Assembly (NCBI GenBank): GCA_013815345.1
Contig: JACDGK010000001.1
Span: 102,434-166,433, forward strand
Length of the DNA: 64,000 nt
From: Patescibacteria group bacterium
Lineage (GTDB): Bacteria; Patescibacteriota; Minisyncoccia; Phycocordibacterales; Phycocordibacteraceae
Reading direction: 5' to 3'
The position numbers and the translations under genes are program-made. This document shows, one piece after another, positions 14,456 through 49,182 of the stretch. The notes below the pieces were generated by a model. The model did not search any database. It saw nothing but the letters and a program-made list of their open reading frames with translations, and was not told the origin of the DNA. How positions within the stretch are numbered: the first letter of the stretch is position 1; each line of letters starts with the position of its first letter.

Positions 14456-15691
14456 TTATGCTAAATCATATCTCCCATTAATAATATTCTTGGTTGCTCC
14501 TGAAACGTCAGTAATTATCTCAGAAATTATATATTGAACCAGTACAGTATCTATAGATTCCACTGAATTTACGATAACTGACCAAGGTTCATCAATAGGC
14601 TTGTCTGTCTGACTAATAATAAAAACTTCATTGGGTGTACCTGTTTTATTATATATCTCCTGGGCTATATCCCATGCCATTACAGAATATAATTTCCCAG
14701 CGTGATATTGGGGATTTTTTCCACTCAAACCTTCTATACTAAACGGGCGACGTGACGATATAACTCCTCCTAACCGATTTCCCCGTGCGACCTGGCCTTC
14801 ATCCCCAGATTCGACACAGGAGCCAGTATAAAGCATGTAAAGAAGGTCGTCTCTTTGGCCGTCCGCAGTATTTAGCGTAAAATTTACGTTAAACATTTCA
14901 ATTTTTGAAACTACTCCACGTATTATGGAGCGAACTATTTCCAAATTCTCTTGGTATTGATCAATTGTTGCAACTTCGGTTGATATCTGAGGTACACATA
15001 ATGTAAGCATTACTTCCTGTGCATTTCTAACAGCCATTACCTTTATATCTGAGCCGAGCCAATGATATTTTTTCTTAGAAATATCAGAATTGAGTTCTCG
15101 TTCTACTTCAAGAACAAGAATCTCTAATGGAGTATAGGGAGCCCATCCACAACCCACCGCCGTATCATTCGCTACAGGTCTTATGTATTCAGGTAAATCT
15201 GTAAGTTTACCAGGACGAAATCTTGAGTATGCAGATGAACGTGCATTCGTAGAATTTATAGGCTGTAGGCCTCGTGTTGTATTTGCAGTTATCTCAATCA
15301 TTAACCTGCAATTTGTTAGAAAATCAAAGTTCTTAAGTTCAGTCTCCAAAAAATTTGCTGCAGTATCAATTAAAGCATCACGATACTGAACCTTTTTGCC
15401 TCCAACCTCTGGAGTTGCCCTGCCATTTATTAGCAACCGTATAGGTGAGACAAAGTTCCCACCACCAAAACGGACATCGCATTTCCCACCCATCAATGAT
15501 AATTTGTCGAATTGGTGCCTCAATATGGTTCCAAATTGGTCTATACAAATCTGCGAATAGGTTCGAGAAAGCAGTTCAGCCAGTTTGTCAGCGAGGGTGT
15601 CAGGGTGACCTCTTCCTTTGCGTTCAATAACTTCAAAATCAGCTTTGGACAGATCTTTTAAGTCATTTACAAATCGAATATTCGATACCAT
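14456..15691 (-). CDS. archaeal-type S-adenosylmethionine synthetase (methionine adenosyltransferase)
   Basis: Collinear with archaeal MAT: ERKGRGHPDTLAD, FGTIL.H..D...L.GG...FGGG..VSPI.LL.GRAT, ANDT.VG.G.AP, GDEGQVARGNR.G.I...RP.S.E..SGKNP.H.GK.Y. It is not the bacterial MetK fold. Confidence 0.9.
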   Translation of the reverse strand: MVSNIRFVNDLKDLSKADFEVIERKGRGHPDTLADKLAELLSRTYSQICIDQFGTILRHQFDKLSLMGGKCDVRFGGGNFVSPIRLLINGRATPEVGGKKVQYRDALIDTAANFLETELKNFDFLTNCRLMIEITANTTRGLQPINSTNARSSAYSRFRPGKLTDLPEYIRPVANDTAVGCGWAPYTPLEILVLEVERELNSDISKKKYHWLGSDIKVMAVRNAQEVMLTLCVPQISTEVATIDQYQENLEIVRSIIRGVVSKIEMFNVNFTLNTADGQRDDLLYMLYTGSCVESGDEGQVARGNRLGGVISSRRPFSIEGLSGKNPQYHAGKLYSVMAWDIAQEIYNKTGTPNEVFIISQTDKPIDEPWSVIVNSVESIDTVLVQYIISEIITDVSGATKNIINGRYDLA

Positions 15692-15910
15692 ATGTACATT
15701 CTAACAGATATTTAGATTCAAAAAATCTATCTAGATCTTAATTCACTCACATTCAGTATAATCTGAATTATGTAATCCGACCTACTAGGGTAGATAAATA
15801 TTGGTTCCAGGCATTTCGATTCCGGTCCCCGAATTCATCAGAACACAAATCATTTGTATTGGAGATAACAGGAATCGAACTGAGAATACGCTGCAAATGC
15901 TTAAGCACAG

Positions 15911-15943
15911 AAAAAGCCTGCAAGGTATTTGCAGGCTTTTTCT
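15911..15943. terminator. bidirectional hairpin terminator
   Basis: AAAAAGCCTGCAAGGTATTTGCAGGCTTTTTCT: a perfect 10-bp stem with A- and T-tracts on both sides. Confidence 0.5.
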
Positions 15944-16014
15944 GGTGAACGAGGGGCCGGTACTGTACTGGGTTTGATGCCTGTCGGTACTGGTTCCTCG
16001 TGTCACAACCGTGT

Positions 16015-16084
16015 TGCGGGGGCCGGAATCGAACCGGCGTCTGGAGGTTATGAGCCTCCCGAGGTACCTCTCCTCTACCCCGCT
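16015..16084 (-). tRNA. tRNA with a CAU anticodon (Met, fMet or Ile2; not resolved)
   Basis: Cloverleaf on the minus strand: D-arm GAGG-AGAGGTA-CCTC, anticodon arm GGAGG-CTCATAA-CCTCC, T-arm GCCGG-TTCGATT-CCGGC, acceptor GCGGGG/CCCCGC. CCA is not encoded. Base pair 1-72 is ambiguous (possible mismatch). Confidence 0.75.
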
Positions 16085-16189
16085 ATATAAATCGTAGTGA
16101 AGCTTCGCATTTACCATCCCGCCATGGAATGGCCTCAATCCTCTACCCCGCTATACTCATATACTACCTATGTTTTGCCTCAAATCAAG

Positions 16190-16516
16190 TTAGTCCAGCT
16201 CGAGGAGATGTTGAGGTGAGTTAGGTTTTATGTTGCTCCGTCGCTCAAGGGCTGAGATTCGGTGTTCGTGGTTGATTGATGCGAGCGCATCTTTTCCCTC
16301 GGCCTCAGTAAGGGCAGATAAGTTTTCTTTTATCTCCTCTAGGGAATATTCAATTTTGATTACTCGTAATTCGATGTTTCGAGTTACTTCCCAGAGATTT
16401 CGGAATTGTTCATCAATAAAAGAAAATCTTACTTCAAGCATGTCGAACAACTTCGACATGGTCTCATCGAACTTCTCATTGGTGACATGTGATGCTGCAA
16501 CCGTCATTGAAAGCAT
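16190..16516 (-). CDS. hypothetical coiled-coil protein
   Basis: 108 aa with heptad-like, E/K-rich sequence. It sits 67 nt downstream of the HEPN-like gene on the same strand. Confidence 0.5.
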   Translation of the reverse strand: MLSMTVAASHVTNEKFDETMSKLFDMLEVRFSFIDEQFRNLWEVTRNIELRVIKIEYSLEEIKENLSALTEAEGKDALASINHEHRISALERRSNIKPNSPQHLLELD

Positions 16517-16583
16517 TTTACCACGATCAATTCACAAAACTCTCAAATCTTTATAAAGTAAAGATGAAATTCTATGGAAAACA

Positions 16584-17171
16584 CTAAATTTCGTTGAATT
16601 CTCGGAAAACGTTCTCGTAGTGGCCAATGGTTCTGTATGCGAGCTGGTCAGAAAGCTTATAGGCAAAGCCCTGATGGGCTATCTCATTACGAACGCGATG
16701 GGCTTCCCAGGCATCTTGCAGCGTCCGAAAATGTGACGCATTTGCAAGTTTTAGTTTGTCACCCACACCATTGCCTAAAAGGCCGAGCTTGGAAAGAAGC
16801 TCATCGAGCATGATATCGGCTTCTATAATGGCCTGACGCCAGTCGCTTTCCTGCGGGCTCTCGATAAGTTGGCGAATGTACGCCCAGCGGGAATGTTCGA
16901 GCTGTACATCCGCGATCTCTTTAGGAATCGTTGCGTATTTTGGGTCCTCATCACGCGATATTTGGTGGAGTCGCATAGTGAAATATACAAGCAATCCTAT
17001 ACAAAAAAATGAAATCAAATAGGCGATAATCGTAACGAAAATCCATAGAGCGCTTGCGAAGTCTGCAAAGCCATTGGCTGACGATCCTCTAAAGATAAAG
17101 ATCGCGTTGTAAATGAGCTGAAAGAAATACGCAATGTTAAGGAAATCAATAGGAGGATCGGCAGGCGTCAT
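16584..17171 (-). CDS. membrane-anchored protein with a C-terminal HEPN-like domain
   Basis: Two N-terminal TM helices. The C-terminal all-helical region contains RNEIAH, which fits the HEPN Rx4-6H motif, preceded by conserved acidic residues. Confidence 0.55.
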   Translation of the reverse strand: MTPADPPIDFLNIAYFFQLIYNAIFIFRGSSANGFADFASALWIFVTIIAYLISFFCIGLLVYFTMRLHQISRDEDPKYATIPKEIADVQLEHSRWAYIRQLIESPQESDWRQAIIEADIMLDELLSKLGLLGNGVGDKLKLANASHFRTLQDAWEAHRVRNEIAHQGFAYKLSDQLAYRTIGHYENVFREFNEI

Positions 17172-17224
17172 TCTTTCTAGTATACGACATCATTTACTTA
17201 CGAGTCCGCGAGTTTAGGAAATGA

Positions 17225-18691
17225 TTAGTGCCCATGTAGTAACGTTTCTCCGGTGATTGCAGCGCCTATTGTAAACAAGAGGTCGTCCGCGCCTTTAGGC
17301 GCGGTAAAGTGTATGCCCGTCGAAAGATCCTTACCTTCTCGCATGACAGTGCCCATCGGCACAGAGATTGCTGGCATGCCCGTGAGATTGGCGGTCACCG
17401 TAAAGATATCTTCGAGGTACATAGAGACTGGGTCGCTCTTTTCACCGAATTTAAACGCAGGAGAAGGTGTTGTCGGGAACGCGATCACATCGACTTTTTC
17501 AAAGGCGTCATCATATTCTTTCGTAAGTACGGCACGCGCTGCATCTGCCTTGCGATAGTATGCATCAATATATCCGGAAGAAAGCACGAACGTTCCGAGT
17601 AAAATTCGACGCTGTACTTCTTCGCCGAAGCCTTCAGTGCGCGTTTCAACATAGTCATCGAGAAGTGTCTTTCCGCGCTTCGCGAGACCATACCGCATAC
17701 CGTCAAATCGTGAGAGATTGGTGGAGGCTTCTGCGGGCATGATGACGTAGTACACCGCGAGCGCATATGAGCTCGTTGGGAGATTCACTTCCACAATCTC
17801 ATGCCCCTGTTCCTTAATTTTTTGCAAAGCTATATCGAAGTTTGCTCGCAAATCGGGATCAATGCCAGAATCAAGAAGATGGTACGGCACACCGACGCGA
17901 AACACCTTCGGTGTTCCGCGTTTCTCATACGGCGACTCTGCAGGAATAGTCGTAGAGTCCAAAGTATCATTTCCTTGTATCGCATCGAAAAGAATTTTTG
18001 CGTCAGCAACCGTTTTCGTGAGTGGTCCGATCTGATCCAAAGAAGAACCTAGCGCCATCAGCCCTGAGCGCGAAATAGAGCCGTAGGTGGGCTTAAATCC
18101 GACTAACCCGCAATGCGCTGCCGGCTGACGAATAGAGCCACCCGTATCAGAGCCAAGAGCAGCGATGACTGTGTGGGCGGCCACAGCGGCGGCTGAGCCG
18201 CCGCTTGAGCCGCCCGGAACACGCGACACATCATGAGGATTCTTAGTGGCTCCGAATGCTGAATGCTCGGTAGAACTTCCCATTGCGAACTCGTCCATAT
18301 TGGTTCGTCCTATAAAAATCGCTCCCTCGGCTTTAAGTTTCATAATTACGGTGGCATCATACGTTGCTCGATAATTCTCAAGAATCTTCGATGACGCGCT
18401 CGCAATCCGGCCCTCAATAAGAATATTGTCTTTAATGGCCAGTGGAACGCCGCAAAGCATGGGTGCCTTCTCGCCTTCAGTATCAAGGCGTTTTTGAGCT
18501 GCATCGATCGCTGCGTCGGTTTCGGCGTCGATGAAAAACTCGCGATAGGCATTCAATTCAGAGTTTCTTGCTTCTGCTGTCGCAAAGCATGCGTCAAAGA
18601 GTTCGCGCACGCTGAATTGTCCCGAGCGCAAAACGCTCGCGGCTTCCGTTATTGAAAGCTCATTCGGTCTTTTGGCACCGGCGTCAGTCAT
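17225..18691 (-). CDS. gatA: Glu-tRNA(Gln)/Asp-tRNA(Asn) amidotransferase subunit A
   Basis: Amidase signature GGSSGGSAAAVAA and the Ser-cisSer-Lys region. 488 aa. Confidence 0.95.
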   Translation of the reverse strand: MTDAGAKRPNELSITEAASVLRSGQFSVRELFDACFATAEARNSELNAYREFFIDAETDAAIDAAQKRLDTEGEKAPMLCGVPLAIKDNILIEGRIASASSKILENYRATYDATVIMKLKAEGAIFIGRTNMDEFAMGSSTEHSAFGATKNPHDVSRVPGGSSGGSAAAVAAHTVIAALGSDTGGSIRQPAAHCGLVGFKPTYGSISRSGLMALGSSLDQIGPLTKTVADAKILFDAIQGNDTLDSTTIPAESPYEKRGTPKVFRVGVPYHLLDSGIDPDLRANFDIALQKIKEQGHEIVEVNLPTSSYALAVYYVIMPAEASTNLSRFDGMRYGLAKRGKTLLDDYVETRTEGFGEEVQRRILLGTFVLSSGYIDAYYRKADAARAVLTKEYDDAFEKVDVIAFPTTPSPAFKFGEKSDPVSMYLEDIFTVTANLTGMPAISVPMGTVMREGKDLSTGIHFTAPKGADDLLFTIGAAITGETLLHGH

Positions 18692-18971
18692 GGGAGATAA
18701 TCTGCTTCACCGAAAGTGCGTTACCTTCTCGTGCAGGGAATTGTTCGGCAAGCTTTTCTGTCCACTTCCCTTTTTCATGCGGGTCAGCATCAGCACGAAA
18801 CACATTTGTGTAGGGCAAAAGAGGCTCGCCTTTTGGCACCTGAAGCTCCTCAAGCTGACTCACATATTTTAAAATTCCATCGAATTCCTCCGCAAATCGA
18901 GTAAGTTTTCCTTCCGGCACGGAAATACGCGCGAGCGCCGCAAGTTTTTTAACGTCTTCAGAAGTTGCCAT
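18684..18971 (-). CDS. gatC: amidotransferase subunit C
   Basis: 95 aa. GatC-like LARISVPEGK...L..IL.YV.QL. Overlaps the gatA start by 8 nt. Confidence 0.85.
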   Translation of the reverse strand: MATSEDVKKLAALARISVPEGKLTRFAEEFDGILKYVSQLEELQVPKGEPLLPYTNVFRADADPHEKGKWTEKLAEQFPAREGNALSVKQIISHD

Positions 18972-19040: not shown

Positions 19041-19259
19041 ATGAAACGAGTTTTTCCTATAATTGTCGAAAAAGATGAAGATGGCTTCTTTGTCGCAACG
19101 AATCCAACACTTCCCGGTTGCTACAGCCAAGGCAAAACCATGGAAGAAGCATTAAAAAATGTGCAGGAGGTAACTGAACTTTGCCTTGAGGAACTTTCCG
19201 TTGAAGATCGAGAGATTGAGCAGGATACACAAGTCAGTGTACATCTTATTACAGCCTAA
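19041..19259 (+). CDS. hicB: HicB-family antitoxin
   Basis: UPF0150/HicB fold signature: IVEKDEDGFFVATNPTLPGCYSQGKTMEEALKNVQE. Confidence 0.8.
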   Translation: MKRVFPIIVEKDEDGFFVATNPTLPGCYSQGKTMEEALKNVQEVTELCLEELSVEDREIEQDTQVSVHLITA

Positions 19260-19261
19260 TA

Positions 19262-19477
19262 ATGCCTCGACTACCACGGCTTTCAGGAAAAGAAGTTATT
19301 AAAAAATTTGAGCATCTCGGATATTCCCAAACCCGACAACGAGGAAGTCATGTATGGCTCGAACACAACTTATTGCCTCCTACCTCTGTGCCTCTTCACA
19401 ACGTTATAGGGCCAGGACTTCTTCGCCAGATTTTGCGCGAAATTAAAGTATCCGTGAAAGAATTTATTGAACTTTAA
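19262..19477 (+). CDS. hicA: HicA-family mRNA interferase toxin
   Basis: 71 aa. The YcfA/HicA motif RGSHV is present. It starts 3 nt after hicB. Confidence 0.8.
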   Translation: MPRLPRLSGKEVIKKFEHLGYSQTRQRGSHVWLEHNLLPPTSVPLHNVIGPGLLRQILREIKVSVKEFIEL

Positions 19478-34605: not shown

Positions 34606-34692
34606 GGAGACGTGGCTGAGTGGTCGAAAGTACCTCACTGCTAACGAGGCAGGGGTTAACGCCCCTCGAGGGTTCGAATCCCTCCGTCTCCG
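34606..34692 (+). tRNA. tRNA-Ser (anticodon GCU)
   Basis: GGAGACG acceptor, D-arm, anticodon loop CUGCUAA, a long variable arm CAGGGGTTAACGCCCCTC, T-arm GAGGG-TTCGAAT-CCCTC, acceptor CGTCTCC, discriminator G. Confidence 0.9.
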
Positions 34693-36209
34693 CAGATAGA
34701 AACTTCGAGTTCGGACAGAGCCGTGCCGCAAAGCGGCGTGGCAGAATGGGCGGACAGAAAATCCCGCCGCGTAGCGGCGAATTGGCTCGGCGTGGGGAAT
34801 CCGAAATGCGGGGATTTGTCACGAACCGAAGGGTTCGTTCCGATTTTTTGCACGAATGATTTGATTTGGTACAAATCATCCGATTGAGACAAAAAATCGG
34901 CTTGTTTCATATCCAAAATCCATTCCCGCAGGGGTTCGACCCGATTCTTTCTCCCGCGTTCAAAATCTTTCTTTTTCTCTTGCAAAGCGGCGAGAGAGCG
35001 CATGAGCACGTCCTTGCGCTTCAAGTACATCTCTTTCGGTATATCGCCATCTAGGTACGCAGATACCAGCTTTTCCATGCGCTCCTCGCTCGCTTTGATA
35101 TTGTCGGAAAGATTTTGAACCTCGCTTTGCGACACCTCAACTTCCTCGCGCTCCCATTCTTTCACTTTCGCCAACATCCAATCCGTATAGCGATCGCAAA
35201 GCGAGATTGTTTGAAGCCGTGCCTTTATTTTGTCGGCAAGGTCGGCCTCGCGGACATACGGTTGCGAGCAGCGGCCGCGTTTCTTGGAACACCGATAGTA
35301 GCGATACTTCGTACCCCAGCGATTGACCGCCCACTGCGCGGAAATCATGCCGCCGCACTCGCCACAGCGGAATAGCCCGACAAGCGGAAAATCATGCTTC
35401 ACCTTGCGCGTGCGCGGCCGCTCCTTGCCCGCCACGACCTTCTGCACGGCTTCAAACAATGCGGGAGTTAGAATCGGCTCAAAGTTTCCATCAAACCATT
35501 CCTGACCGTGCTTCACGAATCCGATATACACGCGATGCGTCAAAAGCCGTTTGATGGAAACTTTGGCAAGTGGCGTTCCGTTTGAAGTCATCACATTCAA
35601 GTCCGCCAAAAATTGCGACAACGAAACGAGAGTATGCGACCCTTTGGCGTATTCTTCGTACGCGAGGCGCACGATACGCGCGTTCGTCGGATGCGGTTCA
35701 ATATTGCGAATACGCGGGTTATTTTGATAGCCAAAGGGTGCGCGATTGAGCCACTCGCCCCGACGCAATTTTTGGCGGACGCCGCGCTTGATATTTTCGG
35801 ACAGATTGTCGCTGTAATATTTAGATTGCCCGAACGCCACTTGCAACATAAATAGTCCCTGCGGGGTCGGTTCAAACCAAAATGTCGGGAAGCGCAAAGA
35901 CACCACCTTACGCGTGTCTACGGCGTATATGATGCGCCCGCCGTCAATGCTGTTGCGAGCCAATCTATCGGGATGCCACGCCAATATGCCCACGCCGTCC
36001 ATTGATTCAATGCGGGCCATCATTTCGCCGTACACCTCGCGCCCCGGTGTCTTTGCGCTTTTCGACTCTTGAAATTCCTCAAGAATTTCAAGATTTTCTT
36101 TACGCGCGATCTCCCGCAACTCAAACAGCTGCGCCTCGATGGACATGACTTGCCGGTCATCGTCCTCAGTGCTCTTACGCGCGTATAGAAAATATTTTGG
36201 CTTGTTCAT
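34656..36209 (-). CDS. large serine recombinase (resolvase/invertase catalytic domain, recombinase domain, zinc ribbon)
   Basis: N-terminal catalytic block YARKSTEDD...SIEAQ (Ser nucleophile), recombinase domain, Cys cluster CGECGG...C. The probable start is the Met at 36209, since the track's extra 33 N-terminal codons lie in the right IR. The frame runs through the left IR and stops only inside the antisense of the tRNA. Confidence 0.85.
   Translation of the reverse strand: MNKPKYFLYARKSTEDDDRQVMSIEAQLFELREIARKENLEILEEFQESKSAKTPGREVYGEMMARIESMDGVGILAWHPDRLARNSIDGGRIIYAVDTRKVVSLRFPTFWFEPTPQGLFMLQVAFGQSKYYSDNLSENIKRGVRQKLRRGEWLNRAPFGYQNNPRIRNIEPHPTNARIVRLAYEEYAKGSHTLVSLSQFLADLNVMTSNGTPLAKVSIKRLLTHRVYIGFVKHGQEWFDGNFEPILTPALFEAVQKVVAGKERPRTRKVKHDFPLVGLFRCGECGGMISAQWAVNRWGTKYRYYRCSKKRGRCSQPYVREADLADKIKARLQTISLCDRYTDWMLAKVKEWEREEVEVSQSEVQNLSDNIKASEERMEKLVSAYLDGDIPKEMYLKRKDVLMRSLAALQEKKKDFERGRKNRVEPLREWILDMKQADFLSQSDDLYQIKSFVQKIGTNPSVRDKSPHFGFPTPSQFAATRRDFLSAHSATPLCGTALSELEVSICGDGGIRTLEGR
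34689..34819. repeat. left 131-bp terminal inverted repeat (begins with CCGCA of the tRNA-Ser 3' end)
   Basis: Direct alignment with the reverse complement of 36234-36364. Confidence 0.85.
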
Positions 36210-36233
36210 ATTAGTTTTTGGATTGAAACAAGA

Positions 36234-36364
36234 GACAAATCCCCGCATTTCGGATTCCCCACGCCGAGCCAATTCGCCGCTTCGCGGCGGCATTTCCTGC
36301 CCGCCCATTCTGCCACGCCGCTTTGCGGCGCGGCTCTGTCCGAACTCGAAGTTTCTATCTGCGG
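36234..36364. repeat. right 131-bp terminal inverted repeat
   Basis: Reverse complement of 34689-34819. It produces mirrored spurious ORFs (36139..36375+ and 34478..34879-). Confidence 0.85.
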
Positions 36365-49084: not shown

Positions 49085-49158
49085 CCATCCTTAGCTCAGT
49101 TGGTTAGAGCATCGAGCTTATACCTCGAGGGTCCCTGGTTCGAGTCCAGGAGGATGGA
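49085..49158 (+). tRNA. tRNA-Ile with a UAU anticodon
   Basis: CCATCCT acceptor, D-arm GCTC-AGTTGGTTA-GAGC, anticodon arm TCGAG-CTTATAC-CTCGA, T-arm CCTGG-TTCGAGT-CCAGG, discriminator A. Confidence 0.8.
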
Positions 49159-49182
49159 CTACGAAAGTGACGTGTGTGAAAA

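Follow-up and report, generated by a model that had tools for sequence, protein, structure and literature searches.

The last open reading frame (ORF) of a conserved ligA-gatC-gatA block in a Patescibacteria group bacterium (assembly GCA_013815345.1) was analyzed within a window of 64,000 nucleotides (nt), the whole stretch from position 102,434 to 166,433 of contig JACDGK010000001.1; window coordinates are used below. The gene (16584..17171, minus strand) codes for a membrane-anchored, HEPN-like protein of 195 amino acids (aa). On the whole, the evidence somewhat favors a vertically inherited, inner-membrane HEPN ribonuclease (RNase) that is probably active, as judged by analogy with characterized HEPN RNases, and has a divergent cytoplasmic domain. 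The protein represents a large new family that none of the scanned libraries (Pfam, NCBIfam, PADLOC, PHROGs) covers; it was seen in Patescibacteria only, is housekeeping-like, and follows gatA at the canonical position of gatB. No paper on such a family from the candidate phyla radiation emerged from literature searches. On the same strand, the gene is followed after exactly 67 nt by an ORF of 108 aa (16190..16516, minus strand) and then by a tRNA-Met(CAT) gene. Both ORFs, the gap between them, an RNEIAH motif, the upstream gatCA genes and the downstream tRNA had been listed by an earlier sequence-only reading of the locus, and every one of them was found in the sequence. Scans of the two ORFs against Pfam, NCBIfam, PADLOC and PHROGs returned nothing significant.

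Full-length homologs with 45-66% identity numbered 632, all of them labelled Patescibacteria, Paceibacterota or Parcubacteria, and relatives were present in 386 species-level genomes. A profile of the C-terminal domain matched 2,593 clusters at 50% identity, of which 1,500 had E ≤1e-10, and 5,088 clusters at 90%, and among these matches the domain was invariably located at the extreme C-terminus. Among the 150 best cluster representatives, 98 were window-like proteins of up to 240 aa (short form), and the remaining 52 were longer, reaching 696 aa. PADLOC, PHROGs and the collections of phages and plasmids that were searched gave no match to the family, and neither did 2.9 million viral contigs.

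Gene order was compared at 160 loci (80 genome loci plus metagenome loci), 141 of which had upstream sequence and 130 downstream DNA. The order pilin-like gene, ligA, gatC, gatA, HEPN gene was present at 80/80 genome loci and at every metagenome locus with sufficient upstream DNA. Independent gene calls with Pfam labels, GatC and Amidase among them, agreed on this order. In the window, gatC (18684..18971) and gatA (17225..18691) lie upstream on the minus strand, and the gatA stop codon is located 53 nt ahead of the HEPN gene start. By an automated test, gatA was directly upstream at 140/141 loci; the gap between the two genes had a median of about 23 nt, and some pairs overlapped. The lone failure (L087) was an ORF-start artefact, and adjacency holds at 141/141. 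Long forms were likewise found directly after gatA (L120, L127, L129, L141, L152 and L156), including metagenome long forms of 309-482 aa, though gatA is just 53-57% identical there. The linkage of the HEPN gene to gatCA is operon-like. The protein-coding genes downstream of the HEPN gene were variable and mostly unidentified. Distribution and synteny mark the gene as part of the vertically inherited core of Paceibacteria/Parcubacteria.

The C-terminal domain of the window protein (residues 84-195; 16587..16922, minus strand) was modelled separately with AlphaFold2 (AF2). The resulting structure, which is predicted and not solved, had a predicted local distance difference test score (pLDDT) of 91.9 and a predicted template modelling score (pTM) of 0.85. 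It contains helices at residues 85-103 (H1), 108-128 (H2), 151-170 (H3) and 175-191 (H4), and an inserted short helix at 136-142 (in domain numbering 2-20, 25-45, 68-87 and 92-108, with the short helix 53-59 between H2 and H3). The HEPN superfamily is defined by an up-down four-helix bundle made of two alpha-hairpins with frequent inserts between H2 and H3, by an Rx4-6H motif at the end of H3 or the start of the H3-H4 loop, by a polar residue after the arginine, and by an acidic residue in H2 (PMC3710099). The fold, the insert and the motif were recognized in the protein. The domain is an up-down four-helix bundle, helix 136-142 occupies the position of the H2-H3 insert, and R161-N162-x3-H166, with asparagine following the arginine, is placed at the C-terminal end of helix 151-170. 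Two acidic residues that are invariant in 50 members, E117 and D119, both fall within helix 108-128, at the position of the accessory acidic residue of HEPN domains (codons E117-A118-D119, 16815..16823, minus strand).

The RNEIAH codons (R161-N162-E163-I164-A165-H166; 16674..16691, minus strand) had served the sequence-only reading as a HEPN signature. The bare Rx4-6H pattern occurred in 36/61 window ORFs of at least 150 aa and is uninformative on its own; the stricter RNxxxH occurred in 2/61. The motif carries weight here because R161, N162 and H166 never vary across two alignments with 25 and 50 family members; G168 is equally constant. Across the 50 diverse members, the complete set of invariant domain residues was E117, D119, H158, R161, N162, H166 and G168.

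The C-terminal domains of the same 50 members were scanned against Pfam, and all HEPN matches remained below threshold. Seven HEPN families dominated these matches: HEPN_Swt1 (PF18731; 26/50 members, best E 8e-4), HEPN_RiboL-PSP (11/50, 0.0019), Hypoth_Ymh (5/50, 7.8e-4), DUF4145 (PF13643; 5/50, 0.012), HEPN_Cthe2314 (3/50, 0.011), pEK499_p136 (2/50, 0.077) and HEPN_Apea (1/50, 0.081). A further member, P0283, scored 26.1 bits on HEPN_Swt1 (cut-off 27.5; E 1.1e-5), with profile positions 19-110 of 115 covered. The best DUF4145 score in the family was 16.3 bits against a cut-off of 23.1. The gathering thresholds of these two families were not reached by any member scored, and the full-length 195-aa protein gave zero HEPN matches in Pfam at E up to 10. 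In a Foldseek search of the domain model against PDB, the HEPN proteins 1wty, 2hsb and 6m6w (HepT) were the top matches (E 0.2-0.9), and HEPN chains occupied ranks 1, 2, 3 and 6. HEPN proteins, including 1o3u and 1ylm, were also at the top with the full model, and E-values for both models ranged from 0.2 to 3.

Taking sequence and model together, the domain very probably defines a new HEPN family, whose nearest relatives in the superfamily are the Swt1/Abi2-like members; it belongs to no existing Pfam HEPN family. The helical HEPN domain that had been read from the RNEIAH motif is supported by its predicted fold, by the invariant R-N-x3-H and by the prevalence of HEPN families among the weak matches. 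The structure prediction that had been suggested as a check on this domain was run, and gave a confident four-helix bundle with HEPN proteins as the top Foldseek matches. Several observations weigh against an active HEPN RNase. No HEPN match reached a curated or statistical threshold, the window domain itself scored just 14.2 bits on HEPN_Swt1, generic four-helix bundles were mixed among the HEPN matches in Foldseek, and profile searches of PDB sequences with three alignments produced chance-level matches only. Furthermore, an RNase that is always active would have to be kept in check, and the short form shows no evident means of doing so.

The same data were considered for a four-helix bundle unrelated to HEPN, for example one that binds a metal or ligand via E117, D119, H158 and H166, in which RNxxxH would be a mere resemblance. 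This explanation accounts for the sub-threshold nature of all HEPN similarities, for the chance frequency of the bare motif, and for the many generic bundles retrieved by Foldseek at similar E-values (Psb27, cytochrome b562, di-iron and hemerythrin-like proteins). Residues H158, N162 and H166 are also spaced i, i+4, i+8 and thus share one helix face, and H158 is an extra invariant histidine outside the canonical motif. It is nevertheless judged quite improbable. The weak Pfam matches were dominated by HEPN families and included no metal-bundle family, P0283 comes nearly to the HEPN_Swt1 cut-off across the full domain length, and HEPN chains lead the Foldseek ranking. The position of the motif, the H2-H3 insert and the asparagine after the arginine match the HEPN definition, as does the presence of an acid in H2.

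The N-terminal membrane region (residues 1-67; 16971..17171, minus strand) consists of an aromatic helix, a strong transmembrane (TM) helix and a positively charged stretch. Two TM helices had been assigned to it by the sequence-only reading. The second of these is well supported, as residues 44-62 are the sole strongly hydrophobic segment of the protein (Kyte-Doolittle 2.73); the first (residues 13-27) is of marginal hydrophobicity (1.8 over 15 residues) and overlaps the conserved aromatic helix HFLNxxYFFxLLY at residues 9-21. N-terminal helices were placed at residues 13-28 and 34-79 in the full-length AF2 model, and a two-helix TM hairpin still fits the architecture of the family. In the alignment of 25 members, F10, N12, Y15, F17, Y21, W43, Y63 and R67 were invariant. 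Hydrophobicity and counts of flanking lysine and arginine residues revealed a K/R-rich stretch beyond the last TM helix, and the HEPN domain is therefore predicted to be cytoplasmic.

Nine long forms of 338-696 aa were examined. All start with a TM helix, continue through an external region into a second TM helix that a K/R-rich stretch follows, and end in the same C-terminal domain. Between the TM helices of P0256, P0267, P0269, P0235 and P0127, one to about six repeats resembling GPxxxxGxRYWYVDFxxGPDGWV were observed. SH3b/GW signatures were detected in the external repeats of several long forms, with SH3_3 and GW matches ranging from weak to threshold-level; P0267 reached 34.6 bits for GW (cut-off 21) and 27.0 bits for SH3_3 (cut-off 27). 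This suggests that the repeats are an external module for binding to cell wall or host which is coupled to the cytoplasmic HEPN-like domain.

Tethering of a HEPN domain to the membrane had been expected to be unusual. It is not new in itself, because three membrane-associated HEPN groups were predicted in 2013, among them an Abi2/Swt1-type and a DUF4145-type with TM and SH3 segments (PMC3710099), and because the pore-forming Csx28 is another case (bioRxiv 10.1101/2021.11.02.466367). The closest comparison is with the Swt1/Abi2-like HEPN domains (PF18731), which gave the best and most frequent Pfam similarity and have R-N-x3-H in common with the family; a TM-fused clade of Abi2/Swt1 proteins with a cytoplasmic HEPN domain C-terminal to the TM helix has already been described (PMC3710099). 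The architectures differ, however, since the proteins of that clade have an alpha-helical domain and a single TM helix, whereas the family described here has a TM hairpin or SH3b repeats between two TM helices. The context differs as well, being a core operon with gatCA and an initiator-type tRNA and not a conflict system. In the case of DUF4145 (PF13643), one long form covered profile positions 10-87 of 88 at a sub-threshold E of about 0.01, and the long forms resemble, by description, the TM + SH3 + HEPN fusions of Firmicutes (PMC3710099, Table 1). For DUF4145, unlike the present family, the usual association is with restriction-modification and defence genes. The top structural neighbors of the model (E 0.2-3) were HepT/MntA and other members of HEPN-MNT pairs (1wty, 6m6w, 1o3u, 1ylm). 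In contrast to these pairs, no nucleotidyltransferase was present among the identified neighbors, the distribution is non-mobile, and the tyrosine of the Rx4HxY motif is lacking (RNEIAHQG).

For the window protein, an inner-membrane HEPN RNase would most likely operate as follows. The short TM hairpin would anchor it in the inner membrane; in longer relatives, the two TM helices would flank the external SH3b/GW-like repeats. The catalytic-type set appears complete: helix 2 carries an acid (E117/D119), and helix 3 bears R161-N162-x3-H166 at its C-terminal end. As in characterized HEPN RNases, a dimer or oligomer in the membrane would pair two Rx4H motifs into a composite, metal-independent endoRNase site, which, as expected of the superfamily, would leave a 2',3'-cyclic phosphate. 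RNA would then be cut on the inner face of the membrane, as part of housekeeping or, where an ectodomain exists, upon a signal from the envelope. For other TM-HEPN proteins, "stimulus-dependent RNA degradation" has been proposed (PMC3710099).

A more specific version of this mechanism, in which the protein is an envelope-coupled housekeeping HEPN RNase and a bacterial counterpart of Ire1, is tentative and rather unlikely. Here the SH3b/GW repeats of the long forms or the TM hairpin of the short forms would act as sensors and control dimerization, and specific RNAs, possibly tRNAs or the gatCA transcript, would be cut at the membrane in connection with tRNA-dependent amidation and the supply of initiator tRNA. 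The long forms match the layout of eukaryotic membrane-associated HEPN RNases, the Ire1/RNase L KEN domain proteins and C6orf70, that is, an external or luminal sensor, a TM segment and a cytosolic HEPN RNase, and Ire1-like logic of sensor, TM segment and RNase was proposed for bacterial TM-HEPN proteins by Anantharaman et al. (PMC3710099). However, the family has neither the kinase domain nor the circular permutation nor a detectable sequence relationship, and the window protein is almost devoid of an external segment; the likeness to Ire1-type systems is a functional analogy only. Under such a mechanism, the long-form repeats would sense the state of the cell wall or of host contact. If true, this would be one of few bacterial HEPN RNases to be inherited vertically and to serve a core cellular function, and in these reduced genomes it might take the place of membrane-bound initiators of decay like RNase Y or RNase E.

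A HEPN fold without nuclease activity was also considered. The protein would then serve in the membrane as a scaffold or pore, as does the octameric TM-HEPN protein Csx28, or as an RNA- or tRNA-binding adaptor that works with GatCA. The probability of this reading is low. For a pore, Csx28 of type VI-B2 systems offers the precedent, as it is likewise small and combines an N-terminal TM segment with a divergent C-terminal HEPN domain (bioRxiv 10.1101/2021.11.02.466367), and the many invariant aromatic and polar residues of the TM hairpin suggest that it is more than an anchor. Csx28 is, in contrast, associated with Cas13b and defence. Csx28 chains were absent from the top 50 Foldseek PDB matches listed and from the PDB profile searches. 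Within about 6 kb, the genes present were the pilin-like gene, ligA, gatC, gatA and mostly unidentified downstream genes; no cas gene was among the identified neighbors (neither Cas13b nor another sign of a type VI-B system), and no dedicated cas search was made. For an adaptor, the gatA-HEPN junction is telling, as it was never broken at 141 loci, whereas the ligA-gatC junction sometimes was, and the HEPN gene takes the position that gatB has in canonical gatCAB operons. A nearby gatB was rejected, since tblastn found no match within 6 kb at the 160 loci or in the 64-kb window, an absence that also counts in favor of this reading. On one Patescibacteria contig, gatB was seen after secA-obg (L161, 10155-11648), apart from gatCA. 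A relationship of the C-terminal domain to the YqeY tail of GatB was likewise rejected, as the 50 members had zero sub-threshold matches to GatB_Yqey. Adjacency to gatA is weak evidence of a physical link because the block also holds the functionally unrelated ligA. Invariance of the arginine, asparagine, histidine and acidic residues in 50 members is, moreover, the usual signature of a catalytic HEPN domain (PMC3710099).

The sequence-only reading had interpreted the locus as a HEPN toxin that is neutralized by the adjacent 108-aa coiled-coil protein, i.e., as a toxin-antitoxin (TA) or abortive-infection pair. The two ORFs do lie on the same strand 67 nt apart, a HEPN-like domain with an intact motif is present, and TA insertions occur in the window because a genuine HicAB pair is located nearby. 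The existence of the 108-aa ORF was confirmed; its coiled-coil character derives from weak matches to coiled-coil families. The proposed check on co-occurrence of the downstream gene was run, and its outcome makes the pair extremely improbable. The 108-aa ORF was found at 0/160 related loci. It had one homolog (45% identity) among 5.8 billion proteins, which sits between murB and secA in another genome with no family member beside it. In the closest relative (66% identity), where the ORF is missing, the tRNA gene follows 46 nt after the HEPN gene, and an ORF of 108 aa beyond it is unrelated (E 4.3) and of coincidental length. At most loci there is no space for a partner gene, because the tRNA promoter is located within about 40 nt of the HEPN stop codon. 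The fixed neighbors were gatA and the tRNA-Met promoter, and no conserved adjacent partner, be it an antitoxin or a nucleotidyltransferase (MNT), was seen among the neighbors identified. The HEPN gene is core and vertically inherited, with invariant core-operon synteny and fixed after gatA at 141/141 loci, and is absent from the PADLOC, PHROG, phage, plasmid and viral sets. With the 108-aa ORF as an unrelated local insertion and the 195-aa gene as a core gene after gatA, the locus is therefore no TA or abortive-infection module.

The HicAB pair is encoded between ligA and gatC on the opposite strand (19041-19477, plus strand) and comprises a HicB-like antitoxin of 72 aa (Pfam E 1.9e-12) and a HicA toxin of 71 aa (1.1e-14). 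It was absent from 160/160 related loci and looks like a genuine TA insertion into the conserved block that is specific to the window lineage. At the same junction, some relatives have an ORF of 239-245 aa that carries no annotation (L165/L166, 4382-5119; L168, 2382-3101). The ligA-gatC junction is therefore permissive to insertions.

The tRNA-Met(CAT) gene downstream (16013..16084, minus strand) was called by ARAGORN, and the Rfam tRNA model matched it with 58.9 bits; an Rfam scan of 15600-17300 returned this tRNA only. It had been regarded as the anchor of an islet. It belongs instead to the conserved block, since a tRNA-Met(CAT) follows the HEPN gene on the same strand at 89/130 loci, usually 37-45 nt past the stop codon, and is identical in sequence to the window tRNA at 33 loci. 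The best E. coli match of the window tRNA (78% identity) was the tRNA-Met gene between argG and rimP-nusA-infB, a position that is taken here to be metY, encoding an initiator tRNA. E. coli carries four initiator tRNA genes; the window tRNA had a median of 4 matching places per genome. Because of the position of this match, the A1xA72 mismatch and the A11:U24 pair, the window tRNA-Met is most likely an initiator tRNA.

The spacer between HEPN gene and tRNA was inspected at 40 loci (L004-L142). In most of them, a sigma-70-like promoter directly follows the HEPN stop codon, with the layout TTGC(A/G)x, about 17 nt, a TATAGT- or TATTAT-like element, about 7 nt and the tRNA 5' end (AGCGGGG). Co-transcription of the tRNA as the 3' end of the operon was downgraded, as the spacer has promoter-like -35 and -10 elements of its own. 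The window scan detected no terminator-like site on the gene strand in that spacer, so that read-through could still occur.

In the window, the ancestral junction of stop codon, promoter and tRNA is matched by a segment at 16139..16189 (minus strand). It consists of a promoter-like string (TTGATT, 17 nt, TAGTAT; 16156-16189), which abuts the stop codon of the 108-aa ORF, and of a 17-nt copy of the tRNA 5' end. Because this string and the copy follow the ORF's stop codon, the 108-aa ORF, which is unrelated and lineage-specific, looks to have been inserted where the ancestral tRNA promoter adjoined the HEPN stop codon. The copy is part of an exact 17-nt direct repeat (16071-16087 and 16139-16155), comprising the tRNA 5' end plus 3 upstream bases at a spacing of 68 nt; a further 51 nt lie between the copy and the full tRNA. 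This arrangement looks like a partial tandem duplication of 68 nt, as a result of which the tRNA has a leader of roughly that length.

Between the tRNA and the gene for S-adenosylmethionine synthetase, two T-arm-like tRNA fragments and a perfect 16-bp hairpin were observed (15812-15831, 15868-15882 and 15908-15944). The first fragment also spans part of the acceptor stem, and one fragment shows 94% complementarity to the T-arm of the tRNA-Met itself. The hairpin has flanking runs of T and A and could be a bidirectional terminator. No tRNA (ARAGORN) or Rfam family was called at these elements. The S-adenosylmethionine synthetase (14456-15691, minus strand) matched AdoMet_Synthase (PF01941) with an E-value of 1.2e-92, which is presumably the archaeal-type family and not the bacterial MetK family; it was conserved at 84% identity at one related locus (L013).

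Elsewhere in the window, a large serine recombinase of 550 aa with Resolvase, Recombinase and Zn_ribbon_recom domains is encoded at 34656-36308 (minus strand). Its gene ends inside the 3' part of a tRNA-Ser(GCT) gene (34606-34693, plus strand). Since this layout is expected of a tRNA-integrated element, the actual tRNA-anchored islet of the window may lie here. In addition, a tRNA-Ile with the anticodon TAT was called by ARAGORN at 49085-49159 (plus strand). This anticodon is uncommon in bacteria, in which AUA is usually read by a lysidine-modified CAU tRNA.

The correction of a plausible toxin/partner annotation illustrates that reasoning from a motif and a neighbor can mislead when comparative context is left aside. 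To our knowledge, bacterial HEPN domains come almost entirely from conflict systems, namely TA, abortive-infection, CRISPR accessory and restriction-modification systems. Here, a catalytic-type motif is kept by a large, uncatalogued family that behaves as a core gene of a major class of the candidate phyla radiation. Should the 195-aa protein prove to be an active RNase in the membrane, it would point to an unrecognized step of RNA processing or signalling in organisms with very reduced genomes and mostly unknown physiology, and its small size would make it tractable for testing.

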